Assembly (NCBI GenBank): GCA_016197005.1
Contig: JACPWO010000002.1
Span: 79,851 to 143,850, forward strand
Length of the DNA stretch: 64,000 nucleotides
Reading direction: 5' to 3'
Source: Candidatus Anderseniibacteriota bacterium
GTDB lineage: Bacteria > Patescibacteriota > Andersenbacteria > UBA10190
Of the stretch, positions 5,366 through 60,138 are shown piece after piece. Each line of letters begins with the position of its first letter. Within the stretch, counting starts at the first letter, position 1. A program made the position numbers and the translations under genes. The notes beneath the pieces were generated by a model, which saw only the letters and a program-made list of their open reading frames with translations, ran no database searches and had not been told where the DNA came from.

Positions 5366-5366
5366 A

Positions 5367-33649: not shown

Positions 33650-34918
33650 TTAAATATCGAGCGGGAATTGTTTGCACAATTCGAGGACTTGTCCACGAAT
33701 TTTCTGCTGCAACCCTTCATTATTTGGATCGTGAATAATCTCAGCAATCCATGTTCCAATAGATCGCATTTCTGTTTCTTTCATACCCCGGGTGGTAAGT
33801 GTTGGCGTTCCGAGCCTAACACCACTTGGTTTGAAAGGCGAAGAAGGATCAAACGGAACGGTATTGCAGTTTGTTACAATTCCGCCCTGTTCCAGAGATG
33901 CTGCCATTGGTCGTCCGAGACCAATTCCAAGTGGGCGTAAGTCAATGAGGAGGAGGTGAGTGTCGGTACCATCGGTTACGAGCTTTATGCCTTCGGCCAT
34001 GAGCGTTTCAGCAAGAGCCTTAGCATTCGCCACAATCTGGGCGGCATATTCTTTAAAAGAAGGTTGTAGTGCTTCACCAAAGGCAACTGCCTTAGCAGCA
34101 ATAGTATGTTCGTGTGGGCCACCTTGTAATCCCGGGAATACCGCTTTGTTTATTGCTTTCGCATATTTCTCGTGAGACATAATAATGGCTCCGCGTGGCC
34201 CCCGTAATGTTTTGTGAGTAGTCGTAGTTACAAATTGTGCAGCGGGGAAAGGACTCGCATGTACACCAGCCACAACGAGGCCAGCAATATGAGAGATATC
34301 GGCTAGATGCAGGGCACCAACTTCATCAGCGATAGATTGAAAACCAGCAAAATCAAAGGTACGAGGATAGGCAGTAAAGCCGGAAATAATGAGTTTTGGT
34401 TTATGTCTGCGAGCAAGTTCTCGCACTTGATCTAAATCAATGCGCTCGGTCTTTTCATCAACGGCATAATGAACAGGGGTAAAGTAACGACCAGAAAAGT
34501 TTACGGGGCTGCCGTGTGTTAAATGACCACCGTGGGTCAGATTAAGTCCCATAAACGTATCCCCCTTTTCAAGAACAGCTAAAAATACAGCTTGATTAGC
34601 TGGACTACCAGAATTTGGTTGTACATTTACATGTTCGGCCCCGAATAACTGTTTGGCACGGTCAATGGCCAGAGTCTCAATTTCGTCAGCGTGAGCTTGG
34701 CCTTGATAGTAGCGCTTAGTTGGGTAGCCTTCACTGTACTTATTAATAAGGATGCTGGCTGAGGCTTCGCGAACGGCTGGACTGACATGGTTCTCTGAAG
34801 GAATCATGGTCAAAGTCGTTTGTTGACGCTCTTCTTCAGCTTTAATAATATTCGCAACTTCCGGATCAGTTTCTGTTAAACGAGTTTTTATTCCTTCACG
34901 CTGCTTTTGCATGCTCAT
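33650..34918 (-). CDS. glyA: serine hydroxymethyltransferase
   Basis: PLP-lysine motif TTTTHKTLRGPRGAII; 422 aa. Confidence 0.95.
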   Translation of the reverse strand: MSMQKQREGIKTRLTETDPEVANIIKAEEERQQTTLTMIPSENHVSPAVREASASILINKYSEGYPTKRYYQGQAHADEIETLAIDRAKQLFGAEHVNVQPNSGSPANQAVFLAVLEKGDTFMGLNLTHGGHLTHGSPVNFSGRYFTPVHYAVDEKTERIDLDQVRELARRHKPKLIISGFTAYPRTFDFAGFQSIADEVGALHLADISHIAGLVVAGVHASPFPAAQFVTTTTHKTLRGPRGAIIMSHEKYAKAINKAVFPGLQGGPHEHTIAAKAVAFGEALQPSFKEYAAQIVANAKALAETLMAEGIKLVTDGTDTHLLLIDLRPLGIGLGRPMAASLEQGGIVTNCNTVPFDPSSPFKPSGVRLGTPTLTTRGMKETEMRSIGTWIAEIIHDPNNEGLQQKIRGQVLELCKQFPLDI

Positions 34919-35381
34919 ATGCTCGAGTATATGTTACGAATGAAAAATTATCATAGTGAGTTTGCGTTTGCGGAATCCATTCCTGTTTTGTAACGCGAGG
35001 AAAAAACGCATCACCCTCATATGAGTCATGAATATGGGAGATGTATAATCGATCTGCTATCGGTAGGAATTGTTGATAGACGAGTTCGCCACCCGCAACC
35101 ATGATTTCACTTCCAAAACGTCCCGCTGTTTCCAGGGCGTCGGGGATAGAAGGCACAAATTGGACAGTATCGCTGGTAGATGAGAGTTTATTACTCAAAA
35201 CAATAAGAAAGCGATTGTCTAAGAGGTTGGGAAGCGATTCAAATGTTCGGCGACCAATAATAACAGGCTTACCTTCCGTAAGTGTTCGGAATAATTTCAT
35301 TTCCTGTGGCAGATGCCACGGCATTAGGTTGTTTTTACCTATGACGCCGTTTTTGGCGACAGCTGCAATGATTGAAATCAT
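34896..35381 (-). CDS. folA: dihydrofolate reductase
   Basis: MISIIAAVAKNGVIGKNNLMPWHLPQEMKLFRTLTEGKPVIIGRRTFESL; 161 aa. Overlaps glyA by 23 nt. Confidence 0.9.
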   Translation of the reverse strand: MISIIAAVAKNGVIGKNNLMPWHLPQEMKLFRTLTEGKPVIIGRRTFESLPNLLDNRFLIVLSNKLSSTSDTVQFVPSIPDALETAGRFGSEIMVAGGELVYQQFLPIADRLYISHIHDSYEGDAFFPRVTKQEWIPQTQTHYDNFSFVTYTRAYEHAKAA

Positions 35382-37054
35382 ATATTGATCCGCTCGAGCG
35401 ACTTTAACTTCTCCTGAATCTTTTCTTCCTGCCCCCTGCGAGCAAAGTCATAATTACCCATGTTCACCCGCATATGTTCAGTAATAAGTGGATAAACTTT
35501 TTCTAAGAGCTTAAATTTGTCCTGTTCAATCTTGCGGTAATCTGGGTGCCCTTCAGGAATAGTACGTAACTCCATTTCCCAAAAACATTCCCGTAGATTC
35601 TTGTATTGCATAAACCGTACTCGGTGGGCCATTGCTACCGCATATTGAGCTAGTATACGATCTTTCTTCGCAATTTTTACATACACCTTTTCTACTTTCT
35701 CAATCGCTTTGCGGTAGGGCTTATCAAATCCAGAGTCCTTGAGTTCAATTGGTGTATCGTAACCATGTTCAACGGTAAATACCTGTCGTTGTTGAGATAA
35801 CATTCGATGACGGTGCAAGTCTCGCCAAGCGCCAATATTCATGGAGATATCAAAACGTACGAATGCGTTTTCAAAAGCACGGCCGACTTTTTGCCACCGT
35901 TGAGTACGACCATCCAAGTAAGCAGTAATAATATTACGCTTTTTGCCATCTGACATACCACGAACCGCAGTCATATTTTCTTCCCAACTTCCATTATTAT
36001 TTGGTGCTGAATACAGCATTCCGGCAATAATCTTTTCTTCACCTTCCGAATCGTACTCCACAAGTTTTACTGCTTCACTGGTAGCGGTGTTAGCCAGCTC
36101 TGCTTCTTCAACAAATTCAGCGACCCGATCACCACGACCAGCCATATATTCTTGGTAGGCGCGGGCATTTTCTTGTCCGTCTTTGTCTTTTAAGCGACGC
36201 AAGAATGATGGCGTAATCTTGTAGAGTTCATCAACTGTTTCTTGAGCAGCCCAGCGAATCTCTCCAAGCGAATGTCTGAGCGAGCGAGCGGCTAAGTATT
36301 CAAACGCTTGCCCGTTACCAAAAAATGCAACCTGTGAAAGAGTGGACACTGGTAGTAAGCCACGCAAAGTATCAAAAGCTTTCTTTTCAACCACCCCTGC
36401 CTTTTCTTGAGGAAACTTTTTCTGCAGCCACGCCTGGAGTTTCGGTAGAAGACTAATATAAGTCTTAAACAGACTATCCATTGCTGCTCGGTATTCTTTT
36501 TCTAGCCCCATCTGTTTAAGAGAGGGGTCTGTGTAGTACATATACCCACCATCTATTTTTCGGGAGAAGTCTACGTACCGAGTTGATTTCTCTATTGGTG
36601 CTAGGCCAATGCGCTGATCTTCAAAGTGTTTGATAGCTACCTGAGAGATACCAGAATACACCACATGCATACCAGCCATTTGCGCAATGGAGTCGTCACC
36701 ATATTGTGCGAGCCATTTGGCGTAGAAACTGCGAGCCCGAGGATTAGAAAAAATATCCTGGATGGGATGTTTCTTTAAGAAATCTATAAATGCTTGGAGA
36801 TGATCACCATACTCAGATTTGTCATCCAAAAACGGTTTAATATATTCCTTGAGGAAAATGGGGCGGAGGTCTTCGGCAGCACGGCTAGTCCGGGAACACA
36901 GAGCGCCAATAACTTCAGGAGAGAAAATAAGCGGGGCATATACTGGTTTATCAAGGTTTGTGAAAAAAAGCTGGAGGTTCTTTTTGTCTTTCGACGAGTA
37001 TGAATCCTTCTCAAAAGGAGGAGCAAAATCATCATGAGAAAGCTTTTTTGGCAT
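35378..37054 (-). CDS. thyX: ThyX-like flavin-dependent thymidylate synthase, long form with two Thy1-like halves
   Basis: - The C-terminal half carries LHRHRMLSQQRQ, which resembles the ThyX RHR...S motif.
- The N-terminal half has a degenerate version, SGISQ...DQRIG...STRYV.
- No ThyA signature is present.
- It overlaps folA by 4 nt. Confidence 0.45.
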   Translation of the reverse strand: MPKKLSHDDFAPPFEKDSYSSKDKKNLQLFFTNLDKPVYAPLIFSPEVIGALCSRTSRAAEDLRPIFLKEYIKPFLDDKSEYGDHLQAFIDFLKKHPIQDIFSNPRARSFYAKWLAQYGDDSIAQMAGMHVVYSGISQVAIKHFEDQRIGLAPIEKSTRYVDFSRKIDGGYMYYTDPSLKQMGLEKEYRAAMDSLFKTYISLLPKLQAWLQKKFPQEKAGVVEKKAFDTLRGLLPVSTLSQVAFFGNGQAFEYLAARSLRHSLGEIRWAAQETVDELYKITPSFLRRLKDKDGQENARAYQEYMAGRGDRVAEFVEEAELANTATSEAVKLVEYDSEGEEKIIAGMLYSAPNNNGSWEENMTAVRGMSDGKKRNIITAYLDGRTQRWQKVGRAFENAFVRFDISMNIGAWRDLHRHRMLSQQRQVFTVEHGYDTPIELKDSGFDKPYRKAIEKVEKVYVKIAKKDRILAQYAVAMAHRVRFMQYKNLRECFWEMELRTIPEGHPDYRKIEQDKFKLLEKVYPLITEHMRVNMGNYDFARRGQEEKIQEKLKSLERINI

Positions 37055-40673: not shown

Positions 40674-41408
40674 ATGGAAGAACAACCTCAGTTTAAAAAG
40701 GAAAAGTTTACCGCTCCAATGGCAGTCGTTGTGGCCGGTGCGTTAATTGCAGCTGCATTATATTTCCGACCAGCTGGAAGTCCGACAGGGGTACAACCAG
40801 GAGCAGAAGCCCCTTCTCACTTAACTGAAGAAAAACTCATTGAACATGCGGAAGCAGCTGGTGTCCCAGACGTTGACGCGTTTCAAACGTGTCTAGAAGA
40901 CAAGCAATATGACGGGGAAATAGATGCGGATTTAGCTGATGCTGCCGCGGCCGGAGGAACGGGCACACCATATACAATTTTAATTGGACCAAATGGTGAA
41001 AAAGTCCCAATAGGAGGAGCCCTCCCTTATGAGGCGGTAAAAGCGGAAATAGATAACCTGCTGGCTGGTAAAACCCCGGTTGCTCCGGCTAATCCCAGTC
41101 CGACGCCAGAGATAACCTTTAGAGTAATTGATGATACCGATCACGCTCGTGGACCAGCCGGTGCTCGGATTACGATGCTTGAATACTCAGATATTGAATG
41201 TCCGTACTGTCAGCAATTCCATCCGACGCTCGAACGAGTAATGGAGGAATATCCGAACGATGTCCGTTGGGTATACCGCCATTTCCCACTGGAACAAATT
41301 CATCCACATGCTCGGGAAGCAGCTAATGCTACGGAATGTGCTGCTGTTCAGGGGAAATTCTGGGAACTAACTGACTACCTGTTTACCGAAGCAATTAAAA
41401 AAGGATAA
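40674..41408 (+). CDS. DsbA-like thiol:disulfide oxidoreductase, membrane-anchored
   Basis: N-terminal TM; CxxC site DIECPYCQQFHP; conserved RHFPL as in the other DsbA-like protein. Confidence 0.75.
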   Translation: MEEQPQFKKEKFTAPMAVVVAGALIAAALYFRPAGSPTGVQPGAEAPSHLTEEKLIEHAEAAGVPDVDAFQTCLEDKQYDGEIDADLADAAAAGGTGTPYTILIGPNGEKVPIGGALPYEAVKAEIDNLLAGKTPVAPANPSPTPEITFRVIDDTDHARGPAGARITMLEYSDIECPYCQQFHPTLERVMEEYPNDVRWVYRHFPLEQIHPHAREAANATECAAVQGKFWELTDYLFTEAIKKG

Positions 41409-41444
41409 ATAAAAAAAATCCACCGGCAGGTTTTTGCAGGTGGA
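41407..41444 (-). terminator. rho-independent terminator for the minus-strand operon
   Basis: TCCACC...GGTGGA hairpin with an A12 run on the plus strand, which is a U-tract on the minus-strand transcript. Located 10 nt past the FHA gene stop. Confidence 0.45.
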
Positions 41445-41453: not shown

Positions 41454-41846
41454 TCAGCTGGGTTGTACCAAAGTGAGGATGTGCAAGTCACCAAGGCCGA
41501 TTGTGGCGCCAGCGCCAACACACTTGATCTCACCCGGCTTCAATGCGTTGCCGTTTACTGACGTTCCGTTTCGGCTGCCAGCATCGCTAATCGAAACGGA
41601 GCCGTCCGCATGGACCGATAGGGTGCAGTGGCGTCGCGATACGTCGCCATATGGAATTTTGATACTGCCCTCTCTTCCCACGACGTAATCACCGGGTGCA
41701 AGATTGTACCCTTCTTGGAGATTAGTCTGAAGGCGTATCACTGGCGCATCGGCCCTCATCGTCAAGTCACTTTCGGTACCAAGGGTACCATCGAGCTTTT
41801 CCAGGTCGGGCGTCATGGCAACCCCCCAAAAGAGTGAACGAACCAA
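41454..41846 (-). CDS. FHA-domain protein
   Basis: FHA signature VVGREGSIKIPYGDVSRRHCTLSVHADGSVSISDAGSRNGTSVNGNAL. Confidence 0.8.
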   Translation of the reverse strand: MVRSLFWGVAMTPDLEKLDGTLGTESDLTMRADAPVIRLQTNLQEGYNLAPGDYVVGREGSIKIPYGDVSRRHCTLSVHADGSVSISDAGSRNGTSVNGNALKPGEIKCVGAGATIGLGDLHILTLVQPS

Positions 41847-41879
41847 GGTTCTACCTGTCGCTACCTTTTCACAAATTCG

Positions 41880-42626
41880 TTATAAAGTCAAGCGTTTAAA
41901 GATGCGCTCGGGGATGAGTTTGATAATCAGCATGATGTAGCGCCAAAACCAAGGCGTGTACGTGACATCTCTTTTCTTATGTATGGCGTGAACAATATCT
42001 CGCGCGACATCCTCCGGTTTTGCCCAGAGCAGACCCTTTTTAAAGTCAGCAGTCATGGGTGTATCTACTTGCCCTGGCTTAATTGTCACTATGTGAATAT
42101 GTGGATGCTCTTTTACGAGTCTGTTGCGTAGTCCAGATAGCCATGACGTAAGAGCTGCTTTTGCGGTGCCGTAAATATAATTACTTTGGCGACCGCGATC
42201 ACCAGCTACTGATGAGATGACGGCAATCGTTGTTGGTGAAGTTGCCTTTTTAATACTGAGATCGTTAATGATTTCGGTTAAGAGTGAGGCCACGCTTATG
42301 AAGTTTGTTGTCAGTTCCTGCCTTGCCACTGCAAAGTCTTTTTCGCCCGCTTTTTGGTTGCCCAATGTGCCGTACGCAACCAAATAAATGGCAACGGGAG
42401 TGGTGTGAATTTGTTGCACTATATCTTCATGTTTTTCTAAGAGAGAGAGATCAGTAGTAATAGTTTTAACGTCAGTTGCGCCCCGCGTGCGGAGATCTTC
42501 AGCTACGATTTTGAGTCGATCTACACTGCGATCAATTAAAACGAATCGTGGCTTCTCCTCTGCCCACAGACGAGCTGATGCTTGAGCAATAGCTGAGGCG
42601 GCGCCAAAAACGACAATCGTTTTCAT
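41880..42626 (-). CDS. SDR oxidoreductase, DprE2-like (decaprenylphospho-2-keto-ribose reductase homologue)
   Basis: Glycine-rich motif VFGAASAIAQ, catalytic YGTAKAA, about 248 aa. Its ATG overlaps the TGA of the upstream DprE1-like gene (ATGA). Confidence 0.65.
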   Translation of the reverse strand: MKTIVVFGAASAIAQASARLWAEEKPRFVLIDRSVDRLKIVAEDLRTRGATDVKTITTDLSLLEKHEDIVQQIHTTPVAIYLVAYGTLGNQKAGEKDFAVARQELTTNFISVASLLTEIINDLSIKKATSPTTIAVISSVAGDRGRQSNYIYGTAKAALTSWLSGLRNRLVKEHPHIHIVTIKPGQVDTPMTADFKKGLLWAKPEDVARDIVHAIHKKRDVTYTPWFWRYIMLIIKLIPERIFKRLTL

Positions 42627-43933
42627 GTATTCTTTGTAACACGCTTCCAAAAACTGGAGGAGAAGGCTGGGTCAATATATTTTTTAAACTCAGCTGCCTC
42701 AGGGTAGGAGTGACGGAACATGGCCGGCGACATGTGTGCGTCCTTAGCGGGGTACAGACTACCCCCTGCTTTCAAAACAACGTCGTCTAGTTTCTGAAAA
42801 AGGTTCAGCAATTTTTCACCAGCATGCGGAAAATCCATGGCTAGTGTAAACCCCGGACGGGGAAAGGACAGGAGAGCGGGCGTATTCTTTTTTCCAAGCG
42901 GTTTTAGGGTAGTTATGGGTGAGGCAAAGCCGGCCGCAGCTACTTCTTGTAATATTGTATGCAATGTTTCACCACTTTTTTCAGTCGTAACTTGGCACTG
43001 GTATTGGAGGAATCCATTGCGACCATACAATCGGTTCCAATAACCAATGGCGTCTTGAGGGTAGAAAAATGGCTCATAGTGGGTAACGTATTTCTTTTTT
43101 GTAACGATCTGTCGATAAAAATACAGTGTATTAAAGATTTTTATTGTGAAGGAATTAAGCAGTGAGACTGGTAGTGTTATCGGAACAGTAAATTTTGGTG
43201 GCCGATAATATTTTTTCTCTTGCGAATTATCTCTTTCTTCTTCTGGTAGGTGATTTCCGCGTAAGACAATACCACGTCCTGTTTTCCGGCCGCGTGCCGA
43301 TGAATCAAGTGAGGCAATAACGTATTCGAAAGCAGGAAGAGAGGCAGTTAGAAGTTCAATTGTTTGAGTAAGATCCTCTGTCTTTGTTGCTTCGGCCGCA
43401 AGAAGCCTACTCGGTGCTTTCTTAAGTTGTATTTCAGCCCAGGTAATAAGTCCGGTGAGACCGAGGCCACCAATCGTCGCCTTAAAGAGTTCTGTATTTT
43501 GCTGAGAAGAACATGTAATACGTCCATTAGAACGCAGAAGTTCAAATTGAGTAACATACGCTCCAAAACTGCCGGCTCGATGGTGATTCTTTCCATGAAC
43601 GTCGTTGGCAATAGCTCCGCCGAGGGAAACAAATTTTGTTCCGGGAGTGACGGGTAAGAACCATCCTTTGGGAGTAATAAATTTCAGTATTTCACCAAGA
43701 CTTACACCAGCTTCGCATCGCAGGAGTCCTGTTTCTGGGTTAAATGAGATGAAATGATTCAAGAAGCGAGTAGAAATTGATGTGCCGTCTTCATTGAGGG
43801 CCACGTCCCCATAGCTGCGACCCATACCAAATGCCAGAAGGGGCCGACTAGTTGGTAAGTCGTCTGTTCGCCATAATAACGGGTGCACGCTTTGGTTGGG
43901 TGGTAAATAATTTCCCCACGATGAATTGCTCAT
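42623..43933 (-). CDS. FAD-dependent oxidase, DprE1 homologue (decaprenylphosphoryl-beta-D-ribose 2'-oxidase family)
   Basis: Several blocks match M. tuberculosis DprE1 nearly exactly as I remember it: GMGRSYGDVAL, LGGAIANDVHGKNHH, GYWNRLYGRNGFLQYQ, LSFPRPGF. Confidence 0.85.
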   Translation of the reverse strand: MSNSSWGNYLPPNQSVHPLLWRTDDLPTSRPLLAFGMGRSYGDVALNEDGTSISTRFLNHFISFNPETGLLRCEAGVSLGEILKFITPKGWFLPVTPGTKFVSLGGAIANDVHGKNHHRAGSFGAYVTQFELLRSNGRITCSSQQNTELFKATIGGLGLTGLITWAEIQLKKAPSRLLAAEATKTEDLTQTIELLTASLPAFEYVIASLDSSARGRKTGRGIVLRGNHLPEEERDNSQEKKYYRPPKFTVPITLPVSLLNSFTIKIFNTLYFYRQIVTKKKYVTHYEPFFYPQDAIGYWNRLYGRNGFLQYQCQVTTEKSGETLHTILQEVAAAGFASPITTLKPLGKKNTPALLSFPRPGFTLAMDFPHAGEKLLNLFQKLDDVVLKAGGSLYPAKDAHMSPAMFRHSYPEAAEFKKYIDPAFSSSFWKRVTKNT

Positions 43934-45390
43934 GCTGCGAAGAAGAGAATCATGATCGTAATGACAGCTGCGGCATAACTAAACCAATCTTTACCAGCGT
44001 AAACCGTTGGATCTTCATGCATGCTGCCCGCATTAGTCACATTCCACATGCGCTGCAAGCCCAAGAAGAAAATAGGGATGAGAAGCCAGAGAAGGATCGG
44101 TGTTGTGTATAGAGGAGTTACCGCCGGACTGGTTATATACAACGCGAGTACTCCTAGAGAAAGATAGCTGCAAATAAGTCCAAGAATTGTTAGAGGTTTG
44201 CGGTGAGTTACGGTGTACCCTCGACCGGTGGCCTTTTTGCGTCCGCTTTCTTCAAGGTTACTAATCTCAGAGACTCGTTTTATTAAAGCCAAGCTAAAGA
44301 AAATGAGGGCAGCAAACAGCAAGAGCCATGGAGATACAGGAATGCCGGTCGCCGCGCTGCCAGCAAAAATTCTCAGGACATAGAGCGATGTTATAAGGAT
44401 AACGTCGAGAGCAATAACTTTTTTAAGGCGAAGAGAATACGCCAGATTGAGAACGATATAAATAAGAATGAGCCACAAGAATGGAAGCGGCAGAAGGAGT
44501 GTTATGAGTAAACTTAAAATACCCAGGGTAAGTCCGGAGATAAGAGCCGTTTTTATGGTCATCTTTCCGGAGGCAAGTGGACGGTGTTTTTTGTGAGGAT
44601 TCTGGCGATCAGCCGGAAGATCAACTAAATCATTTAAAAGATATACTGCGGAGGCAATGGCGCTAAAGGAGATGAAAGCAAAACCGGCCATACCTAATGC
44701 TGGAATATTGAATATTTGATGAGCAGTAAGCAGAGGAACGAAAATAAGAAGATTTTTTATCCATTGATGCCAGCGAATACTTCGCAAAAAGACTTTCAGT
44801 GAAAGTCGATGTTCACCAATTGTTTGTGAGATAGGCCCAAGTTTTTTGGCAGCTTCTGCAACCCCACGAGAAGTATTTACCAAGATTCGCTCACTGGCAT
44901 GTTTCCAAACAATTAGATCAGCCATGGAGTTACCGGCATAGGCAAATTTTCCCTCACCGAACCTATCAATCAGAGCCGCGGCTTTGTCAGAGCCAGTCAT
45001 TCCCCGCGCTTTGCTACTAGCGATGACGTCGTCAAAAAGACCAATGTGTTCTGCAACCATACGGGCAAATTTTTCATTACTTCCCGTCACCAGATACAAC
45101 TTTCGGCCATTTTGCCTTTCGTGTTTCAAATACTCAATAAGTGCTTCATTATAAGGTAGTAAATCCACCACCAGTTCTGCCCGTGAGGCAATTTCATGTT
45201 TACCGGCCCCTTTCCCGGACTTCATCCACCGAAAAACGTGCAGTGCCATGAATGGTTTGTCCTTGAGGAGCGTAAACAAAGCCTCGGCCATTGTATCGGA
45301 AAGTGTCAGCGTTCCGTCTAAATCTACGCATAAAGGGGGCTTCTGCAGCATATGGCGATGGTAGCAGGGCAGTGTCAGGTTTGCTACCAT
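43930..45390 (-). CDS. HAD-phosphatase / UbiA prenyltransferase fusion (decaprenyl-phosphate phosphoribosyltransferase-like)
   Basis: The N-terminal HAD motifs are CVDLDGTLTLSD (motif I), LVTGSN, K...GNSMADL. The C-terminal part has about 8 TM helices and the UbiA Asp-rich motif LLNDLVDLPADRQN. Its stop overlaps the DprE1-like ATG. Confidence 0.8.
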   Translation of the reverse strand: MVANLTLPCYHRHMLQKPPLCVDLDGTLTLSDTMAEALFTLLKDKPFMALHVFRWMKSGKGAGKHEIASRAELVVDLLPYNEALIEYLKHERQNGRKLYLVTGSNEKFARMVAEHIGLFDDVIASSKARGMTGSDKAAALIDRFGEGKFAYAGNSMADLIVWKHASERILVNTSRGVAEAAKKLGPISQTIGEHRLSLKVFLRSIRWHQWIKNLLIFVPLLTAHQIFNIPALGMAGFAFISFSAIASAVYLLNDLVDLPADRQNPHKKHRPLASGKMTIKTALISGLTLGILSLLITLLLPLPFLWLILIYIVLNLAYSLRLKKVIALDVILITSLYVLRIFAGSAATGIPVSPWLLLFAALIFFSLALIKRVSEISNLEESGRKKATGRGYTVTHRKPLTILGLICSYLSLGVLALYITSPAVTPLYTTPILLWLLIPIFFLGLQRMWNVTNAGSMHEDPTVYAGKDWFSYAAAVITIMILFFAA

Positions 45391-50303: not shown

Positions 50304-51932
50304 TTAGCCTCGGATAAGGTGTTCTGCAGCGTATTCTTTCGACGCACCAATCTTCTTACCAGGATTAAAGATGTTATTCGGATCAAAAATATTCTTTACT
50401 TCTTCAAATAATTTGTACACTTCTTCACCGTACATTTTTTTCAGATAATGGCTTCTTACTAATCCATCATTATGCTCAGCCGACATTGACCCTTTGTACG
50501 CAAACACAAGGTCATATACTTTCTCAGACAGTTCCGGAATTATAGCCCGCTGTTTTTCATCAGCTAAATCCATAAGAGGAATGATGTGAAAATTTCCGTC
50601 TCCGACGTGTCCGGCAATCGTGTAGAAAATATCATACTGCTTAAGGATTTTTTCCAGTTGCGGCAGAAATTCTGGCAAATGTCGTGGCTGAATAATGAAG
50701 TCATCAATAAAAGGAGCAGTTTTCTTCGTTTTTACTCTCTTACGTAGCAAATTGAAACTTTCACGGCGAATCGTCCAATATTTTTCTGCTTCATTTTCAT
50801 TACGAGTGATACGAGTAGCAGTAACGAGGCTGCGCACTCCTTGTTCGGCAGCACGCACTCGCATGATGATTTCTTTTTCGTCATAACCAGAAAATTCCGC
50901 AATTAAGATAAGTTTAGGAAGACCGCCGGTGAGTATGAGTTTTACTTCTGGAATAAACTGAAGGGCCAGTGAAAAAATCTTAGTTTTCATTTGTTTTAGG
51001 AGCTGTGGAAAGAATTTCATGGCGAGCTTTAACGTATTGTCATCGTATGACTCAAAACTTTCTGGTTGATGCCGTAAAACAGCTGGAATGATTTGAGATA
51101 GGTTGTCGGTACTACGCAAGAACATAATGAGCATGCGCGAATGAGGTTTTGGCTTTATTAACCGAAAAGTAATTTCAGTAATAATGCCAAGTGTTCCTTG
51201 AGAGCCAACCAGCAGTTGTCCTAAATCAAAACGTCCGTCTTTTTCCACATTCCACAGACTATATCCAGTTGAGTTTTTAGAAACTCTCGGAGTCATTTTT
51301 TTAATAAGTTTACGGTTTTTTTCAAGTAAGCTACTGATACGACGGTAAATTTCTCCCTCCCATGTTTGCATCTGTTTCTTTTTCTCAAGCTCTATTGGTG
51401 AAAGTGATCGAAATGTGTATTCATTTCCATCGGCCAGCACCGCCTTAAGGTTTTTCACATACTTTTCTGTTTTGCCATACGACAGTGTTTTCTCGCCACC
51501 AGAATTATTCGCAACCATTCCGCCAACCGTGCACAAACTCTTCGATGCGGGAAACGATGGGAGTAGTACTCCCAATTTTTCCGTTTCTTTTTCAAAGTTG
51601 CGATAGAACAACCCCGGTTGAACTACCGCCTCGTGGTCGTTTATCTGCACGATCTGGTTCATGTGTTTGTTTACATCAACCACCACAGATTCGGTTAACG
51701 CTCCACCGCTCATGTCCGTGCCCCCAGAACGTACAGTCAAAGAAATATTTTTTTCTTGGTTGGCATATTGTACGAGCGCTTGAACGTCCTCAGTATTTTT
51801 GGGGTAGGCAACTGCTTGCGGCACAAGCTCAAATAAGCTGGCATCACGGCTGTACCGTGTCAGCGTATCTAAGTCACCTGCTACTCCTCCTTTTATAACT
51901 GCGTTTAGCGCAGCAACAATACCCTCCGGCAT
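50304..51932 (-). CDS. FAD-linked oxidase (GlcD / D-lactate dehydrogenase-like, PCMH FAD-binding)
   Basis: FAD-binding N-terminal domain with VRSGGTDMSGGAL; 542 aa, with a C-terminal FAD-oxidase domain. Confidence 0.7.
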   Translation of the reverse strand: MPEGIVAALNAVIKGGVAGDLDTLTRYSRDASLFELVPQAVAYPKNTEDVQALVQYANQEKNISLTVRSGGTDMSGGALTESVVVDVNKHMNQIVQINDHEAVVQPGLFYRNFEKETEKLGVLLPSFPASKSLCTVGGMVANNSGGEKTLSYGKTEKYVKNLKAVLADGNEYTFRSLSPIELEKKKQMQTWEGEIYRRISSLLEKNRKLIKKMTPRVSKNSTGYSLWNVEKDGRFDLGQLLVGSQGTLGIITEITFRLIKPKPHSRMLIMFLRSTDNLSQIIPAVLRHQPESFESYDDNTLKLAMKFFPQLLKQMKTKIFSLALQFIPEVKLILTGGLPKLILIAEFSGYDEKEIIMRVRAAEQGVRSLVTATRITRNENEAEKYWTIRRESFNLLRKRVKTKKTAPFIDDFIIQPRHLPEFLPQLEKILKQYDIFYTIAGHVGDGNFHIIPLMDLADEKQRAIIPELSEKVYDLVFAYKGSMSAEHNDGLVRSHYLKKMYGEEVYKLFEEVKNIFDPNNIFNPGKKIGASKEYAAEHLIRG

Positions 51933-52553: not shown

Positions 52554-54278
52554 ATGGCGGAAAATACCGGCGTCAAAATCCTTCAGTCGCTAGCCGAGAA
52601 GCAGCTCATTACGTTTGAGCAAGCTAATCAGCTGCGTGGTCAGATTGAAGGCGGCGCCAATTTATACGAACTGTTAGTGGATGGCAAGGTTGTAAACGAA
52701 GACCAATATATGGAGGCGTACGCTGCGGCCGTAGAAATTCCATATGTGAATGTCGGCGAGATGCAGATTCCGAAAGAGATCCTCGATATTGTCCCTGAAT
52801 CCACCGCGCGTGGGCATCGCATTGTCGCGTATGAACAAACCCCCGACCTCGTAAAGGTAGCAATGGCTGATCCAAGTGATCGGCAGATTGTTGAATTCAT
52901 CCGCAAAAAAGTAGATGTACCAGTAGAAGTAGCTATTACTTCGCCTTCGAGTATTCGCAAAGTCTTAGCACAGTATCAAGATACTCTTGAAGCCGAGCTT
53001 TCCAACTTAATTAAGCAAGCTCAAACAGTTACTGGCACGGGAGAGCTGACAAAAGTAGCCGAAGACCTGCCGACAGTTAAAATAACAGAAGCAATTTTGA
53101 AGCACGCTATTCTGCAGGGAGCTTCAGATATACATATTGAACCAACGGAAGACCAGCTCATAGTACGGTATCGAGTTGATGGGCTGCTGCACAATGTTCT
53201 AACGCTCCCGAAAGCGGTGATGGCGGGATTGGTGGCACGTATAAAAATCTTAAGTCGTCTCAAAATTGACGAACATCGTCTGCCTCAGGACGGACGTTTT
53301 AAACTAGAAAGTGATGATTACCAGGTAGCATTCCGTGTTTCAACGCTCCCGGTATTTGATGGCGAAAAAGTTGTTATGCGTTTACTCGATGAATCTGGAC
53401 AAGGACTGAAGCTTGATGATATCGGCATGAACGACAAGGCGCTCAAGGTATTCCGCAAAAATATTAATGAACCGCACGGTATGGTGCTCGTTACTGGCCC
53501 AACTGGTTCTGGTAAAACTACTACGCTCTACGCTGCCATGCGTGAGCTTAACCAGCCAGAAGTAAACATCAGCACCATTGAAGATCCAATTGAATACCGG
53601 ATGGAAAAGATTAATCAGACGCAAGTGCAACCCAAAATTGGACTGAATTTTGCTACGGGTCTGCGCGCTCTCGTTCGTCAAGATCCCGACATTATTATGG
53701 TTGGTGAAATCCGTGACGAAGAAACCGCTTCCTTGGCGGTAAATGCTGCTTTGACTGGACATATGGTTCTTTCCACCTTACACACCAATAGCGCCGCTGG
53801 AGCGGTGCCTCGGATGCTCGATATGAAAGTAGAACCATTTTTGATTGCTACAACTGCTAATGCGCTGCTGGCGCAACGTCTTGTCCGCAAACTCTGTCAA
53901 GAATGTAAGGTCGCCGGAAAAGCAGATAAAACGATTATGGATAGCCTGGCAGCCGCTTTAGATATTGAGCACATGCTCAAAGTGCTTCAGGAACAAGGAG
54001 CAGTAAAAAAGGAAGCTGCTTGGGAGGACATCCCTATTTTCCAACCAAAAGGGTGTCCTAAATGCCAAGATGGTTATCGCGGACGACTGGGTATTTACGA
54101 GATATTTGAATTAAGTCCAGCCATTCAGAAATTAATTACCTCGAACGTTACTTCACAGGATATAGAAACAAAGGCACGGGAAGAGCAGGGAATGGTGACT
54201 ATGATTGAAGATGGGATGATAAAAGTTACCCAAGGTATTACCAGTGTGGAAGAAATTCTTCGAGTCGCTAAAGAATAA
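52554..54278 (+). CDS. pilB: type IV pilus / T2SS assembly ATPase PilB (GspE family)
   Basis: N-terminal T2SE_N domain; Walker A LVTGPTGSGKTTTLYA; Asp box; Walker B; His box; the CxxC...CxxC tetracysteine motif CQEC...CPKC. Confidence 0.9.
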   Translation: MAENTGVKILQSLAEKQLITFEQANQLRGQIEGGANLYELLVDGKVVNEDQYMEAYAAAVEIPYVNVGEMQIPKEILDIVPESTARGHRIVAYEQTPDLVKVAMADPSDRQIVEFIRKKVDVPVEVAITSPSSIRKVLAQYQDTLEAELSNLIKQAQTVTGTGELTKVAEDLPTVKITEAILKHAILQGASDIHIEPTEDQLIVRYRVDGLLHNVLTLPKAVMAGLVARIKILSRLKIDEHRLPQDGRFKLESDDYQVAFRVSTLPVFDGEKVVMRLLDESGQGLKLDDIGMNDKALKVFRKNINEPHGMVLVTGPTGSGKTTTLYAAMRELNQPEVNISTIEDPIEYRMEKINQTQVQPKIGLNFATGLRALVRQDPDIIMVGEIRDEETASLAVNAALTGHMVLSTLHTNSAAGAVPRMLDMKVEPFLIATTANALLAQRLVRKLCQECKVAGKADKTIMDSLAAALDIEHMLKVLQEQGAVKKEAAWEDIPIFQPKGCPKCQDGYRGRLGIYEIFELSPAIQKLITSNVTSQDIETKAREEQGMVTMIEDGMIKVTQGITSVEEILRVAKE

Positions 54279-54292
54279 GATATACTTTATAT

Positions 54293-55510
54293 ATGCCAAT
54301 ATTCTCTTTTGAGGGGCGAAGAGAAGACACTGGAGAAGTTGTGTCCGGAGCACGGGAAGCAGTCTCGCATACGGCGCTCGGGCAAGATCTTCTGTCAGAA
54401 GGAGTTTTACTAACTCGTTTTGAGGAAAAGAAACGGAAAAGTCCGGCCGATTCTATATTTGCGTCTCTCCTGGCCCATGTTCCAGTGCTTGAGCGATTAC
54501 TCTTTGCTCGTTACTTCGCTCTTATGCTTCGAGCGGGATTAGATGTGAAGCGCTCACTGGCTGCCCTGGCTGAACAAACGCGGAGTAAACCAATGAAAGC
54601 GGCGCTGCAGTCGGTCTATCAAGGAATTGAGCGTGGACAGCAGCTGGCCGAAAGTATGGCAGCACATACCAATGTGTTTTCTGAGCTATTTGTTAGTTTC
54701 ATTCGTGTCGGTGAGGCTTCCGGACGTTTACAAGAGTCTTTGGAAATTTTGGCCAAACAGCTACAAAAAGAATTTGAACTCAAGCGTGCTGTCCGGGGTG
54801 GTCTTCTTTATCCAGCCATTATTGTGCTGGCCCTGATTGCCGTTGGAATCGCGATGATGATATTCGTGATTCCAAAGTTAGTAGAAGTATTCGAAGGATT
54901 TGATGTTGAGTTACCGCTCACAACTCGTATTTTGATTACCACGAGTGGTTTTTTCCATCATTACTGGTACCTCGTTATTCTCATTGTCATTATTCTGGTT
55001 GGAGGAAGTTGGGGGCTGCTACGAGTGAAATCAGTGAAAGCATTCATTATGCACTGGATGCTGTATGTGCCAATCATCGGCAATATTATTCAGCGAGTGA
55101 ATCTTGCTCGATTCTCCCGAAATATTAGCTCGCTGCTCGATAGCGGCGTGCCATTCATTGAAACGCTGCAGATATTAGGGGAAAACACCCCCCACCCTTC
55201 CTATGCTGCTGTATTTGCTGGGGCCGCTGATTATGTGAAGCAGGGAAAAGAGTTAAGCGCATATTTATCTCAACATGAGAAACTATTTCCTTCTCTGGTG
55301 ACGAATATTATGAAAGTAGGAGAAGAGACAGGTGAGCTAGCTGCAGTATTACAAGAAGTAGCTATCTTCTATGAAAGTGAAGTAGACCAGACGATGAAGA
55401 ATTTAACTTCGGTTATGGAGCCAGTGCTCATGGTCGTAATTGGTCTCGCCGTTGGTGCTCTGGCTATTTCCATCATCTCCCCAATTTACGGATTGGTGAA
55501 TGTAATTTAA
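54293..55510 (+). CDS. pilC: type IV pilus platform protein PilC (GspF family)
   Basis: 405 aa with two GspF repeats and 3 TM helices; typical FARYFALMLRAGLDVKRSL and LSSLLDSGVPFIETLQIL blocks. Confidence 0.85.
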   Translation: MPIFSFEGRREDTGEVVSGAREAVSHTALGQDLLSEGVLLTRFEEKKRKSPADSIFASLLAHVPVLERLLFARYFALMLRAGLDVKRSLAALAEQTRSKPMKAALQSVYQGIERGQQLAESMAAHTNVFSELFVSFIRVGEASGRLQESLEILAKQLQKEFELKRAVRGGLLYPAIIVLALIAVGIAMMIFVIPKLVEVFEGFDVELPLTTRILITTSGFFHHYWYLVILIVIILVGGSWGLLRVKSVKAFIMHWMLYVPIIGNIIQRVNLARFSRNISSLLDSGVPFIETLQILGENTPHPSYAAVFAGAADYVKQGKELSAYLSQHEKLFPSLVTNIMKVGEETGELAAVLQEVAIFYESEVDQTMKNLTSVMEPVLMVVIGLAVGALAISIISPIYGLVNVI

Positions 55511-55518
55511 GTGCGGCC

Positions 55519-56988
55519 ATGAACGGTAGTCGCGGCTTTACCATTATCGAAATCGTAATAACGACGTTTCTTATTGGTACGGTTGTCGTCGGCGTCTTCG
55601 GTCTTTTCTTGCTATCACTGCGCTCTGCTCAAGAGTCGGAGAGACGAGTAGTAGCAGTGGCACTTGCGAATGAACGAATGGAAATGGTACGGAATCTTCC
55701 TTATGTAAACGTTGGCACGTCTGGTGGTATTCCAACGGGGCCTATTTTGCAGATCGAGACAGTTGCTCGCAATGGCTTAGATTATTTAGTGAAAACAGAC
55801 ATTCGATACGTTGACGATGAATATGATGGAAAGGCTGCTGCGCCAACTGAAGAGGATGATCATATAACCATTTGTCATCGCCCGGGGACTCAATCAGAAA
55901 ACACTCTCACTATTAGTTCGCAAGCTTGGCCGGCTCACCAAGCTCATGGTGACTATCAAGGAGAATGTGGTAATCCTGATGATGGCACGGGAGATGGTGA
56001 CGAATATAACGCAGATTACAAACAGGTTCGTGTTGAAGTGTCATGGACAAGTCCTTCCAACCCGTCTCCCGTTCTCTTTATTACTTACATTGCTCCTCCC
56101 GGCATTGAGGGAGGAGAGTTAGGGGGGACACTGGATTTACAGGTAATTGACGCTGCCGGAGTAGGCGTTCCTAGTGCGCAAGTGGTCTTAATAAATGATG
56201 ATACAAGCCCAGCTATTAACCTGACTACGCAGACAGATAGCGATGGGCGCCTTATTCTTCCGGGGCTGCCGGAAGAGGCTGATTCCTACGCGTTAGCAAT
56301 ATCCAAGGCAGGATATACCAGTGAGCAGACGTATGACTCGTCAGCCAGTTTTGTTCCTGACGCAGATCATGGACACCTTTCCATGATTTTAAAGGCGTTA
56401 ACCAGTAAAACATTTTCAATTGATGAGACGGCTTCACTGATTGTAAATACCAAAGATGCCACGGCAACTGCTGTTCCGGATATTGCATATACCCTCCGTG
56501 GTACCAAGACAATTGGTACTGATGGTAGTGGTAACCCCGTATATGTCCTTGATGAGACTGCGGCAACTAACAGTGCTGGAACTCATACCCATTCGGCGCT
56601 GGTGTGGGATTCATATAACTTTCAAGTAGACGGGGAGACGAGTGGGTATGACATAAAGGAAACGAGCTTGTTGTTACCACTTGTTGTGCTTCCCGGAGAC
56701 GATCTAACCCTGGATGTTACGCTTGTTGAGCATACGCCGCTTTCCTTACACGTCACGGTTGCGAATAGTGAAGGACTTCCAATTGACAATGCCACAGTTA
56801 CACTAACAAAGAACCCAACGTTCACCGAAGAGCAAGGGACAGGAGTTTTGGGACAAGTTTTCTTTGCTGATCTTCCCACTACTGCTACGTACACGCTTAC
56901 TGTTGATGCGCCAGGGTTCACCTCTTCGTCTCAGCAGGTACCAGTTGATGAAAGTGAACGCATTCGAGTTCAACTCTCAACGCCATGA
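55519..56988 (+). CDS. type IV pilin-like protein (class III signal peptide), large
   Basis: N-terminus MNGSRG/FTIIEIVITTFLIGTVVVGVF is a prepilin cleavage/methylation motif (G|FTxIE). 489 aa. Confidence 0.65.
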   Translation: MNGSRGFTIIEIVITTFLIGTVVVGVFGLFLLSLRSAQESERRVVAVALANERMEMVRNLPYVNVGTSGGIPTGPILQIETVARNGLDYLVKTDIRYVDDEYDGKAAAPTEEDDHITICHRPGTQSENTLTISSQAWPAHQAHGDYQGECGNPDDGTGDGDEYNADYKQVRVEVSWTSPSNPSPVLFITYIAPPGIEGGELGGTLDLQVIDAAGVGVPSAQVVLINDDTSPAINLTTQTDSDGRLILPGLPEEADSYALAISKAGYTSEQTYDSSASFVPDADHGHLSMILKALTSKTFSIDETASLIVNTKDATATAVPDIAYTLRGTKTIGTDGSGNPVYVLDETAATNSAGTHTHSALVWDSYNFQVDGETSGYDIKETSLLLPLVVLPGDDLTLDVTLVEHTPLSLHVTVANSEGLPIDNATVTLTKNPTFTEEQGTGVLGQVFFADLPTTATYTLTVDAPGFTSSSQQVPVDESERIRVQLSTP

Positions 56989-57593
56989 AAGGATTTACTG
57001 TTGTTGAGACCGTAGTCGTTTTGGGTTTAAGCTTAATGCTTATAACTGCATTGCTGCGTTTTTTAGTTGCCGGCTATCCACTGGCTTCAGTCACGCTGCT
57101 GCAATCTAATTCAAACGAAACTGCGCGGGTACAGTTAAAACGTATTGCCAAAGAAATGCGGCAGATACGATATGCAGACACCGGCGCCTATCCTTTGGTT
57201 GACATGTTGCCGCAAAAAATGGTGTTTTACGCGAATATCGATACTGATGCGGCTACTGAGCGAGTACGATACGAATTAAATGGGACTGACTTAACTCGTG
57301 CCATATTGGAACCAAGCGGAAATCCTATTACGTATAATGTTGCAAACGAACACGCAACGGTAGTGGCAAGAAATATTCGGAATGGAACTAATCCTATTTT
57401 TGTTTACTACAACGGTGATTATCCGGAGGACACTGTAGCCTTAACGCCCGCCGATGTAACCGACGTAAAATACATTCAGTTTCACTTATTGATAGACGCA
57501 AATCCCGATCGGGAACCGAATGCGATTGAAGTAGCTTCTCAGGTACAACTGCGCAATCTCAAGACGAATCTAGGGCAGACAACTGACCCGTAG
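56985..57593 (+). CDS. type IV pilin-like / pseudopilin protein
   Basis: MKG/FTVVETVVVLGLSLMLI prepilin N-terminus; 202 aa. Overlaps the previous gene by 4 nt. Confidence 0.65.
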   Translation: MKGFTVVETVVVLGLSLMLITALLRFLVAGYPLASVTLLQSNSNETARVQLKRIAKEMRQIRYADTGAYPLVDMLPQKMVFYANIDTDAATERVRYELNGTDLTRAILEPSGNPITYNVANEHATVVARNIRNGTNPIFVYYNGDYPEDTVALTPADVTDVKYIQFHLLIDANPDREPNAIEVASQVQLRNLKTNLGQTTDP

Positions 57594-57605
57594 TATAGTA
57601 AAGAC

Positions 57606-60130: not shown

Positions 60131-60138
60131 CACGTGAT

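Follow-up and report, generated by a model that had tools for sequence, protein, structure and literature searches.

The window analysed here, a 64,000-nucleotide stretch of a Candidatus Andersenbacteria metagenome-assembled genome, carries on its minus strand (41454..45390) genes for a fusion of HAD and UbiA domains (HAD::UbiA), a DprE1 homologue, a DprE2-like short-chain dehydrogenase/reductase (SDR) and an FHA-domain protein. The first-pass annotation, made from the letters alone, had anticipated a small-genome, non-actinobacterial host, in agreement with this member of the candidate phyla radiation (CPR). The maximal open reading frame of the HAD::UbiA gene spans 43930..45390, and translation most likely begins with the ATG at 45351 to give a protein of 473 aa (43930..45351), a choice preferred because of the NCBI call and the fit to the family consensus N-terminus. 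The DprE1-like frame (42623..43933, 436 aa) opens with an ATG that overlaps the upstream stop, and the SDR, within a maximal frame of 41880..42650, has an ATG start at 42626 that overlaps the DprE1 stop and yields 248 aa (41880..42626). Provided that this SDR start is used, both ATGA stop/start overlaps described earlier are present, the two junctions reading GCAGCATGAGC and AATACATGAAAACG. The three enzyme genes are one tight operon. Same-strand overlaps of four bases are frequent in this compact genome (e.g., 21206/21209, 35378/35381 and 56985/56988), so those of the operon are ordinary features and not a statistical oddity.

The last gene encodes a small FHA-domain protein, 120 aa from its ATG (minus strand, 41454..41816; Pfam FHA, 1.2e-11), inside a maximal frame (41454..41846) that begins with a TTG. 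The 34-nt spacing originally given for it applies to the TTG start, while the gap to the annotated ATG at 41816 is 63 nt. No terminator was found between the SDR and FHA genes, and the FHA gene is probably co-transcribed with the operon. The unit is closed by the intrinsic terminator that had been proposed on the minus strand (41407..41444), which a simple scanner did not pick up; it has a hairpin (41419..41444; RNA fold dG -13.7 kcal/mol, z -3.4, with 0 of 200 shuffles equally stable) followed by a U8 tract (41410..41417). Synteny in relatives speaks against the FHA gene as the conserved end of the unit: L007, L008 and L009 lack it at the corresponding site, and it is specific to the source genome. 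In three related CPR contigs the three enzyme genes keep their synteny, with identities of 47-61% (fusion protein), 51-59% (DprE1-like protein) and 59-63% (DprE2-like protein), a conservation that implies selection.

The fusion protein combines Pfam HAD and UbiA domains, predicted to act as a phosphoribose phosphatase (N-terminal) and a polyprenyl-phosphate phosphoribosyltransferase (C-terminal), and the NCBIfam family NF006088 covers its whole length at 546 bits (cut-off 351). The UbiA domain reaches 117-156 bits on the DPPRS models of NCBIfam and at most 51 on any MenA, UbiA, heme-o or chlorophyll model, and the best PDB match of the protein is Mycobacterium tuberculosis Rv3806c (8j8j; E 1.8e-28), with the next family at 6.7e-4; both rankings agree with the earlier placement of this domain in the DPPR-synthase clade and not with MenA/UbiA. 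The DxD nucleophile motif of the proposed phosphatase domain is likewise intact. Thirteen residues are invariant in 34 homologues (D10, D12, K123, G140, N141, D145, N240, D241, D244, R249, K358, R359 and E362, in P0001 numbering). The catalytic residues mutated in Citrobacter youngae ORF15, a biochemically characterised PRP-PPPRS fusion (D18, N247, D248, D251, D255, R366 and E369; Kelly 2024, PMC11127046), map with essentially equal spacing onto D10, N240, D241, D244, D248, R359 and E362, all of them invariant in the 34 homologues except D248, which is kept in at least 90%. The N-terminal HAD fusion is not new, as it is the architecture of both ORF15 and NF006088. Nor is the enzyme set as rare as had been implied, since the database contains over 2,500 relatives of the fusion protein, which occurs at full length in 81 plasmid records.

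The second protein, with a Pfam FAD_binding_4 domain, is a putative FAD-dependent polyprenyl-phospho-ribofuranose 2'-oxidase, and 1,714 cluster representatives match it at E<=1e-30. It scores 352.8 bits on the NCBIfam DprE1 model, below an equivalog cut-off of 500 that was built on actinobacterial enzymes, whereas other VAO-type models reach at most 44 bits (next family, 43.5). In the PDB, DprE1 is matched at E 5e-69 and the next protein at 1.5e-10, and these scores bear out the proposed grouping with DprE1 rather than with VAO/GlcD oxidases. Identity to the M. tuberculosis enzyme is 38.5% over 392 positions; for the genetically validated DprE1 of Pseudomonas aeruginosa, 33% is reported (bioRxiv 10.1101/2020.04.19.049825), which places that enzyme further from the mycobacterial one than the homologue described here. 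The blocks that had been called near-identical are present, with GGAIANDVHGKNHH in the window corresponding to GGAIACDIHGKNHH in M. tuberculosis and GFLQYQ identical in both. Residues Y60, G117, H132, K134, R325, Q334, Q336 and K418 are kept, and four changes occur in the active-site region (C387A, N385T, Y314F and S228I). Of the two residues singled out for inspection by the first-pass annotation, Lys418 is therefore conserved and Cys387, the target of benzothiazinones, is replaced by Ala, so that covalent inhibition by these compounds would not be expected. Of the nine non-actinobacterial cassette orthologues compared, eight also have Ala at this site and one has Leu.

The third protein (Pfam adh_short), a putative 2'-keto reductase, is placed in NCBIfam NF005489 at 299 bits (cut-off 267) and scores 160.6 bits on the NCBIfam DprE2 model, whose cut-off of 250 was built on actinobacterial enzymes. 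In the PDB, nothing but M. tuberculosis DprE2 (21gq_C; E 1.9e-21) matches it below 1e-10, as would be expected of the DprE2-like identity first assigned to it. S139, Y152 and K156 are invariant across nine cassette orthologues compared; within the GxxSxI motif (GAASAIA), G8 and S11 do not vary in any of the nine, and one orthologue has Met in place of I13.

Taken together, the operon probably makes a polyprenyl-phosphate-linked D-arabinofuranose (Araf) donor by chemistry like that of mycobacterial DPA synthesis. The route would start from PRPP, with the UbiA-type domain transferring phosphoribose to polyprenyl phosphate and the fused HAD domain taking off the 5'-phosphate to leave polyprenyl-P-ribofuranose (polyprenyl-P-Ribf). 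The DprE1 homologue would then oxidise C2' of the lipid-linked ribofuranose to a 2'-keto sugar, and the DprE2-like SDR would reduce this to arabinofuranose. The donor, its carrier lipid presumably undecaprenyl rather than decaprenyl phosphate, may then be flipped to the other side of the membrane, where a GT-C glycosyltransferase whose gene lies elsewhere would attach the sugar to a polymer of the envelope or to a surface protein. What the analysis shows directly is the identity of the genes, their domain architecture, the conserved catalytic residues, the structure of the operon and its conservation in relatives; that each enzyme acts as described, and that the sugar is Araf, we infer from homology. 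The NCBIfam and PDB groupings and the conserved catalytic residues favour the lipid-linked Araf donor that the first-pass annotation had put forward, and a published survey found that DprE1/E2 homologues co-occur with the synthase exactly where the glycan has Araf (PMC11127046).

The GT-C gene of the pilus locus and the two further GT-C candidates claimed for the window were all found, and each is a candidate consumer of the donor. The first is a compact PMT/GT39-family protein (plus strand, 62745..64000, cut by the window end at 418 of 440 codons; Pfam PMT 5.7e-38, PMT_4TMC 8.8e-30) that is 100% identical to L003:17010-18332; the others, both with the GT-C fold, are a DUF2079 membrane protein (plus strand, 18741..20213) and an orphan 12-TM protein of 600 aa whose C-terminal globular domain is AglB-like (minus strand, 1207..3009). 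None of the three is closer to Araf transferases than to other GT-Cs, and none is linked to the donor by evidence. The same pathway could nonetheless serve the type IV pilus, with the PMT/GT39 protein O-glycosylating Ser/Thr/Pro-rich pseudopilins with lipid-linked Araf in a CPR analogue of the TfpW-dependent pilin arabinosylation of P. aeruginosa, a destination that we regard as unlikely. The gene does lie in a cluster of PilB, PilC, PilM and N_methyl pseudopilin genes, nearby N_methyl proteins carry long S/T/P-rich tracts, and the operon is ~7 kb from this locus, a distance comparable to that of PilB/PilC in L007 and L008. In P. aeruginosa, too, the sugar genes are unlinked to the cluster for pilin and GT-C (bioRxiv 10.1101/2020.04.19.049825). 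Against this, the pilus GT-C is a clear GT39 homologue (yeast Pmt1, E 8e-44) with no sequence relation to the GT-Cs of proteobacterial cassettes. To our knowledge, all characterised GT39 members take polyprenyl-P-mannose and not Araf. The genes between operon and pilus locus are also housekeeping genes (MscS, Lgt and a UvrD-like helicase), so a conserved order of the genome may be all that lies behind the proximity.

It is less probable still, and quite doubtful, that the specificity of the redox pair has diverged from that of mycobacterial DprE1/E2, so that the product is some other lipid-linked pentofuranose, be it polyprenyl-P-ribofuranose, the 2'-keto sugar or a different epimer. Scores under the equivalog cut-offs and the substitutions near the DprE1 active site would fit such a divergence, as would the HAD::UbiA gene standing alone on the contig of one relative and in Roseomonas L015, and in related systems, with other epimerases or none, the same synthase serves to deliver Ribf or Xylf (PMC11127046). 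However, the catalytic residues of oxidase and reductase are intact and kept in nine orthologous cassettes, 2'-epimerisation to Araf is the activity of every characterised DprE1/E2 pair, and the survey ties DprE1/E2 homologues to Araf and GalE-like SDRs to Xylf (PMC11127046). That the genes are unconnected with pentofuranose donors, and encode an aromatic or quinone prenyltransferase with generic VAO/GlcD-type and FabG-type oxidoreductases, is highly improbable: the Pfam domains are generic and the NCBI names family-level only, but the MenA, UbiA, CyoE and ChlG models fall below the DPPRS and fusion-family scores and the GlcD and alditol-oxidase-type models below that of DprE1, the PDB ranking favours DPA-pathway enzymes for all three proteins, and a genuine GlcD-like oxidase in the window (50304..51932) reaches merely 21.5 bits on the DprE1 model.

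The operon has counterparts in uncharacterised proteobacterial cassettes, which share the families NF006088 and NF005489. In Rubrivivax (L012) and Burkholderia stagnalis (L016) the orthologous HAD::UbiA, FAD oxidase and SDR genes are contiguous and in the same order, with 4-nt overlaps at both junctions in the Burkholderia cassette. The set is also complete in Salipiger (L014), Cereibacter (L017) and Rhizobium etli pC (L019), where the UbiA gene is followed by a small gene, GtrA-type or unnamed, and in Cereibacter by a hypothetical gene as well. The orthologues from Rubrivivax, Burkholderia and Salipiger are 36-49% identical across the three proteins. The CPR operon is flanked neither by a flippase gene (GtrA, EamA, SMR or MATE) nor by one for a GT-C, unlike most proteobacterial loci examined: most cassettes include a small GtrA-family or similar-sized unnamed protein, the epimerase-less loci L013 and L015 include an EamA-family small protein, several cassettes have one large membrane protein or two beside the three genes (annotated as GT87 or as hypothetical), and Roseomonas L015 has a DUF6798 protein. 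The proteobacterial cassettes also often lie inside polysaccharide-synthesis loci, whereas the CPR operon has no such neighbours.

Among the characterised systems, the mycobacterial and corynebacterial DPA pathway (Rv3806c, Rv3807c, DprE1 Rv3790 and DprE2 Rv3791) would have four chemical steps in common with the operon, and the NDxxDxxxD and RxxE motifs of Rv3806c are conserved in the fusion. The mycobacterial phosphatase Rv3807c is a separate protein of a different family where the CPR enzyme has a fused HAD domain, the CPR genes form a single tight operon, unlike those of mycobacteria, and no Emb/Aft genes occur near it. P. aeruginosa PA7/Pa5196 offers non-actinobacterial Rv3806c, DprE1 and DprE2 homologues in the D-Araf cluster PsPA7_6245-6249 (Harvey et al. 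2011, as summarised in bioRxiv 10.1101/2020.04.19.049825); there too the donor cluster is unlinked to GT-C/pilin genes in a genome with a type IV pilus system. That cluster includes a GtrA-like protein (6247) and, as a protein of its own, an Rv3807c-like phosphatase (6245), both of which the CPR operon lacks. The TPR-bearing GT-C of P. aeruginosa, TfpW, adjoins pilA and is no GT39/PMT homologue, unlike the CPR pilus GT-C. The three-component pentofuranose system of C. youngae O1/O2 (PMC11127046) places the ORF15 fusion in an O-antigen locus with a MATE flippase and a GT136 GT-C, neither of which adjoins the CPR operon, and its optional epimerase is a single GalE-like SDR (Xylf) or none (Ribf) in place of a DprE1/DprE2 pair. 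The two fusions have a common HAD phosphoribose phosphatase and UbiA-type phosphoribosyltransferase architecture, and the predicted logic is alike, with polyprenyl-P-Ribf made from PRPP, optionally epimerised and used outside the cytoplasm. The gene set is real but of a known, widespread type, and this CPR bacterium is a new host for a known system rather than the source of a new one.

The enzymes encoded by this minus-strand operon most likely make polyprenyl-P-D-Araf, with export and transfer carried out by other proteins. The UbiA domain would join PRPP to polyprenyl-P, the HAD domain would take off the 5'-phosphate, the DprE1 homologue would oxidise C2', and the DprE2 homologue would reduce the keto sugar to polyprenyl-P-D-Araf; other proteins would export, and then transfer, the Araf. 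The four enzymatic steps are assigned through homology to biochemically characterised enzymes and the conservation of catalytic residues. Araf is favoured as the product because every DprE1/E2 pair known to us converts to Araf. The published correlation between the occurrence of DprE1/E2 and Araf glycans (PMC11127046) points in the same direction.

The transcription unit proposed by the first-pass annotation was recovered in an ORF listing as four minus-strand reading frames, which encode the HAD::UbiA fusion (43930..45390, 486 aa), the DprE1-like FAD oxidase (42623..43933, 436 aa), the DprE2-like SDR (41880..42650; 248 aa from ATG 42626, the public gene call) and an FHA protein (41454..41846; 120 aa from the public-call ATG 41816). 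The first gene probably begins at 45351, a start that agrees with both the database entry of 473 aa and the N-terminal consensus of the family, MxxxxxxxPLCVDLDGTL. Provided that the SDR starts at ATG 42626, both junctions between the enzyme genes carry the ATGA stop/start overlaps that had been described (GCAGC-ATGA-GC and AATAC-ATGA-AAACG in the minus-strand reading), so that two bases are common to the downstream ATG and the upstream TGA. This genome has many such four-base overlaps, which are thus an ordinary operon feature. No terminator was found between the SDR and FHA genes, but the spacing of 34 nt originally assigned to them holds only for an upstream TTG, with ATG 41816 lying 63 nt past the SDR stop. 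The terminator predicted beyond the FHA stop was supported by RNA folding, with a hairpin (41419..41444) followed by UUUUUUUU (dG -13.7 kcal/mol, z -3.4, 0/200 shuffles as stable); it was not picked up by a simple consensus scanner. The FHA product is a generic 120-aa FHA-domain protein (Pfam, NCBIfam) that is probably co-transcribed in this genome. Its gene is absent from all three related CPR contigs that keep the three enzyme genes (L007, L008 and L009), and no evidence ties the protein to the donor pathway. The host is the small-genome, non-actinobacterial organism that had been expected, with exact protein matches to contig JACOTL010000006.1 (492 kb, assembly GCA_016178385.1), which belongs to a MAG of Candidatus Andersenbacteria, a lineage of the CPR/Patescibacteria, which are presumed episymbionts. 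In a separate operon of the window, a minus-strand gene (35378..37054) encodes a 558-aa protein with Thy1 (ThyX) as its sole Pfam match, alongside DHFR (34896..35381) and SHMT (33650..34918) genes; ThyX is usually about half this length, and the occurrence of ThyX and DHFR together is unusual.

The three GT-C proteins noted at first pass, including that of the pilus locus, are present in the window, one by homology and two by modelled fold, and none adjoins the operon. The first is a compact PMT/GT39 homologue (62745..>64000, plus strand; Pfam PMT and PMT_4TMC; yeast Pmt1 at E 8e-44) inside a type IV pilus locus. The second is an orphan 12-TM protein of 600 aa (1207..3009, minus strand) that falls into no assigned family and has just 21 homologues; its model (pLDDT 85) predicts a GT-C fold nearest to those of ALG12, AglB and STT3, along with a C-terminal domain like that of AglB. 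The third is a DUF2079 membrane protein (18741..20213, plus strand). These proteins are no nearer to Aft/Emb than to other GT-Cs, and fold does not tell donor specificity. A DAO-type FAD enzyme (2998..4326) and an SDR (4502..5428) beside the orphan GT-C were considered as a second epimerase pair and rejected, having only weak generic similarity to the extra SDR and FAD oxidoreductase of the Burkholderia cassette, one of several proteobacterial loci with orthologous donor genes. Members of the GtrA, EamA, SMR and MATE families were not found by Pfam in the operon or the rest of the window, and the sole MOP-family protein of the window is a MurJ homologue (6295..7635) located 36 kb from the operon, which falls just short of the TIGR01695 cut-off (234.8 against 235.55 bits). 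Among small multi-TM ORFs, a single one is uncharacterised (9820..10311, 4-TM); it lies directly upstream of a Band_7 gene and was rejected as a flippase, an NfeD-like partner being the better fit. Comparison of the three GT-Cs, the 4-TM protein and MurJ with the GT-C, GtrA and EamA proteins of the cassettes gave nothing below E 0.3.

In the type IV pilus locus (52554..64000, plus strand), genes for PilB and PilC are accompanied by those for four large pseudopilin-like proteins that bear N-terminal methylation motifs and long Ser/Thr/Pro-rich and Cys-rich tracts, one of them with a lamin-tail domain and one of 859 aa; these are followed by the PMT/GT39 homologue, which is without MIR domains, and then by PilM (in L003, the NCBI record matching the window). 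Such a gene complement suggests that pilus proteins may be O-glycosylated in a CPR bacterium. A segment of 217 bp within the locus (59901..60117) is missing from the L003 copy, the rest of which is 100% identical over 18 kb. With the segment, the pilus-locus gene at 58790..60130 gains a Cys-rich C-terminal extension (…SFMCVADCELANADPVSGECIGGY…CGDSSDDY); without it, as in the NCBI version, the reading frame is shifted and a TGA beside the next ATG ends the gene. Short GACGAT(G/T)AT repeats on both sides of the difference suggest either an indel between strains or a collapse in the assembly.

It is conceivable, but unlikely, that the PMT-type GT-C of this locus arabinosylates the type IV pilus proteins of Andersenbacteria using the D-Araf donor from the operon. 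The proximity of operon and pilus genes would agree with such a role, but it is explicable by conserved genome order, and the family of the PMT enzyme is mannose-specific. Were this true, a CPR surface organelle would for the first time have a glycan chemistry assigned to it, pilin arabinosylation would have originated twice independently, and polyprenyl-P-Araf would be a new donor specificity for the protein O-mannosyltransferase family.

For the preferred reading, in which the operon supplies polyprenyl-P-D-Araf to other proteins, the FAD enzyme sides with DprE1 as originally claimed. It carries an FAD_binding_4 domain (Pfam, 9.6e-20) and scores 352.8 bits on the actinobacterial DprE1 equivalog NF053785, short of the 500-bit cut-off, with the next family at 43.5 bits. 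In the PDB, the DprE1 proteins of M. tuberculosis and M. smegmatis match at E ~5e-69, and cytokinin dehydrogenases, alditol oxidase and GlcD-type proteins at 1e-10 or worse. Identity to M. tuberculosis DprE1 is 38.5% over 392 positions; the resemblance extends to the catalytic K418 but not to Cys387, which is replaced by Ala. Y60, G117, H132, K134, R325, Q334 and Q336 are also kept, and S228I, Y314F and N385T are changed in addition to C387A. Nine non-actinobacterial cassette orthologues all keep K418, H132, K134 and Q336; at position 334 one of them has Ser in place of Gln, and at position 387 eight have Ala and one has Leu. Cys387 is the benzothiazinone adduct site and sets drug sensitivity, not catalysis. 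With Ala at this position, the enzyme is predicted to be insensitive to covalent benzothiazinones. The DprE1 clade is large, with 1,714 representatives (50% clustering) matching at E<=1e-30; several clade proteins (P0193, P0262, P0307, P0334, P0335 and P0340) have 683-725 aa and the DprE1 match within one half only, and are probably natural DprE1-DprE2 (or other) fusions.

The SDR product (Pfam adh_short) exceeds the cut-off of NF005489 (PRK07102; 299.4 bits against 267) and scores 160.6 bits on the actinobacterial DprE2 equivalog NF053786, below its cut-off of 250. The sole PDB sequence below 1e-10 is DprE2 (21gq chain C), matched over the full length at E 1.9e-21. In nine orthologues the catalytic triad S139, Y152 and K156 (YGTAK) is invariant. 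The glycine motif GAASAIA (residues 8-14) keeps G8 and S11 in all nine, with Met in place of I13 in one. That the operon yields a pentofuranose other than Araf is very improbable, as the redox catalytic residues are intact and conserved.

Upstream of the redox steps to Araf, the fusion protein combines a HAD domain (Pfam, residues 23-158, 2.5e-09) with a UbiA domain (residues 221-451). It scores 546.1 bits, against a curated cut-off of 351, on NF006088 (PRK08238), a 482-position NCBIfam model of exactly this fusion, with residues 13-486 covering profile positions 7-480. The first-pass placement of the UbiA domain among the decaprenyl-phosphate phosphoribosyltransferase (DPPRS) enzymes held: the DPPRS equivalogs NF008976/7/8 score 156.3, 151.5 and 116.7 bits (below their cut-offs of 207, 234 and 474), while models for quinone, heme-o, chlorophyll and archaeal-lipid prenyltransferases all score <=51 bits. 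The best PDB match is M. tuberculosis Rv3806c (8j8j, E 1.8e-28), with the next family at 6.7e-4. By these comparisons the closest characterised clade is the Rv3806c-type DPPRS, and the fusion lies outside the actinobacterial orthologue group. A hydropathy scan detected seven hydrophobic segments, and the UbiA-domain motifs NDLVDLPAD (loop II, NDxxDxxxD) and KRVSE (loop IV, RxxE) both align to the same motifs of Rv3806c. In an alignment of 34 homologues, D10, D12, K123, G140-N141 and D145 of the HAD domain (loop-I motif CVDLDGTL) and N240, D241, D244, R249, K358, R359 and E362 of the UbiA domain do not vary, and D248 is kept in at least 90% of the sequences. Functions of the prenyltransferase and oxidase unrelated to pentofuranose donors can practically be dismissed, as every profile and structure-database ranking contradicts them.

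The proposal that a HAD domain stands in for the PAP2 phosphatase appears right, yet the arrangement has already been characterised. Citrobacter youngae ORF15 consists of an N-terminal HAD phosphoribose phosphatase and a UbiA-type synthase, and has been shown biochemically to make polyprenyl-P-Ribf from PRPP (Kelly et al., PMC11127046). The loop-I catalytic Asp, D18, and N247, D248, D251 and D255 of loop II are important for its activity, and its loop IV holds R366 and E369 (PMC11127046). It is this domain layout and the equivalence of residues that support the proposal: these five residues correspond to D10, N240, D241, D244 and D248 of the window fusion, and the spacing is 229 (ORF15) versus 230 residues from nucleophile to Asn and 119 in both from Asn to Arg. 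In a genome-contig collection searched by exact peptide patterns, the sole match to the fusion protein was a distant one in Clostridium, and a phage collection gave one partial match, to the UbiA domain only.

Among the related CPR contigs, fusion proteins share 47-61% identity with that of the window, and the fusion, FAD oxidase and SDR genes keep the same order in L007, L008 and L009. One flank common to these contigs holds genes for MscS (not in L007), Lgt, a UvrD-like helicase, a GlcD-like oxidase and a cupredoxin-like protein, beyond which lie PilB/PilC in L007 and L008 and an unannotated gene at the end of L009. The other flank holds DsbA-like and NUDIX genes in L007 and L008; L009 stops short of them. 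On the contig of a relative (JGI 3300045391, protein P0013), the fusion gene occurs in the same MscS/Lgt/helicase surroundings without DprE1- or DprE2-like genes at the locus, a configuration that, judged from gene content, is 'Ribf-only'. Since this locus is without the redox pair, related lineages may differ in having a ribofuranose or an arabinofuranose donor.

Outside the CPR, the genes are present on many proteobacterial plasmids, with 104 records from tblastn (81 full-length, 36 from Rhizobium). A Rubrivivax polysaccharide locus has the three genes in the order of the window, and Burkholderia stagnalis has the same 4-nt overlaps. The order in Salipiger is UbiA, GtrA, FAD oxidase, SDR and GT87, which Cereibacter and the R. 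etli plasmid pC resemble, with large hypothetical membrane proteins downstream; Roseomonas has UbiA, EamA and DUF6798 without the redox pair. Identity of the three proteins to those of the window is 44/46/49% for Rubrivivax, 39/39/47% for Burkholderia and 39/39/36% for Salipiger, and at the sequence level orthology is coherent over all three. The Rubrivivax range (44-49%) compares with 47-63% for the CPR relatives, and GC at 40-46 kb (0.45-0.48) is not clearly apart from the remaining window (0.41-0.48); these figures speak neither for nor against an old horizontal transfer of the operon. On the Azospirillum lipoferum plasmid AZO_p3 (L013, 6513..9419), a protein of 968 aa has the HAD::UbiA homologue as its C-terminal half and ~490 extra residues at the N-terminus; an EamA-family mini-transporter follows, and a DprE1/E2 pair is absent.

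Known and widespread precedents exist for the enzymes, for their gene order, for the fusion and for the concept of the system, and no new enzyme, architecture or mechanism is revealed here. DprE1/E2-bearing Araf-glycan systems have been published for Stenotrophomonas, Rathayibacter and others, candidate systems for E. coli, Burkholderia, Rhizobium, Xanthomonas, Bacillus and a phage, and a pilin arabinosylation system for P. aeruginosa. What is new is the host lineage, as no paper connecting the CPR/Patescibacteria with DprE1 or decaprenylphosphoryl sugars turned up in full-text literature searches. To our knowledge, the envelope and surface glycans of these bacteria are essentially uncharacterised. 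A Saccharibacteria pilus study calls glycosylation in that group unexplored (PMC11623550). That an organism with a reduced genome conserves a putatively intact lipid-linked Araf donor pathway implies that it would invest in a D-arabinofuranose-containing surface structure, and the three soluble or membrane enzymes, for which assays are known, provide a testable handle on CPR surface glycobiology.

Most proteobacterial loci that were examined encode a small GtrA/EamA-type protein and/or one or two large membrane proteins (annotated as GT87, DUF6798 or hypothetical) beside the donor genes, whereas the window operon adjoins neither. Similarly, the three-component system of Kelly et al. 2024 has a dedicated flippase (MATE, SMR/EamA or GtrA type) encoded with the synthase, unlike the window operon. 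Set against these known systems, a stand-alone donor operon without an adjacent flippase or GT-C is also new, and the phylogenetic range of three-component pentofuranose systems is extended.
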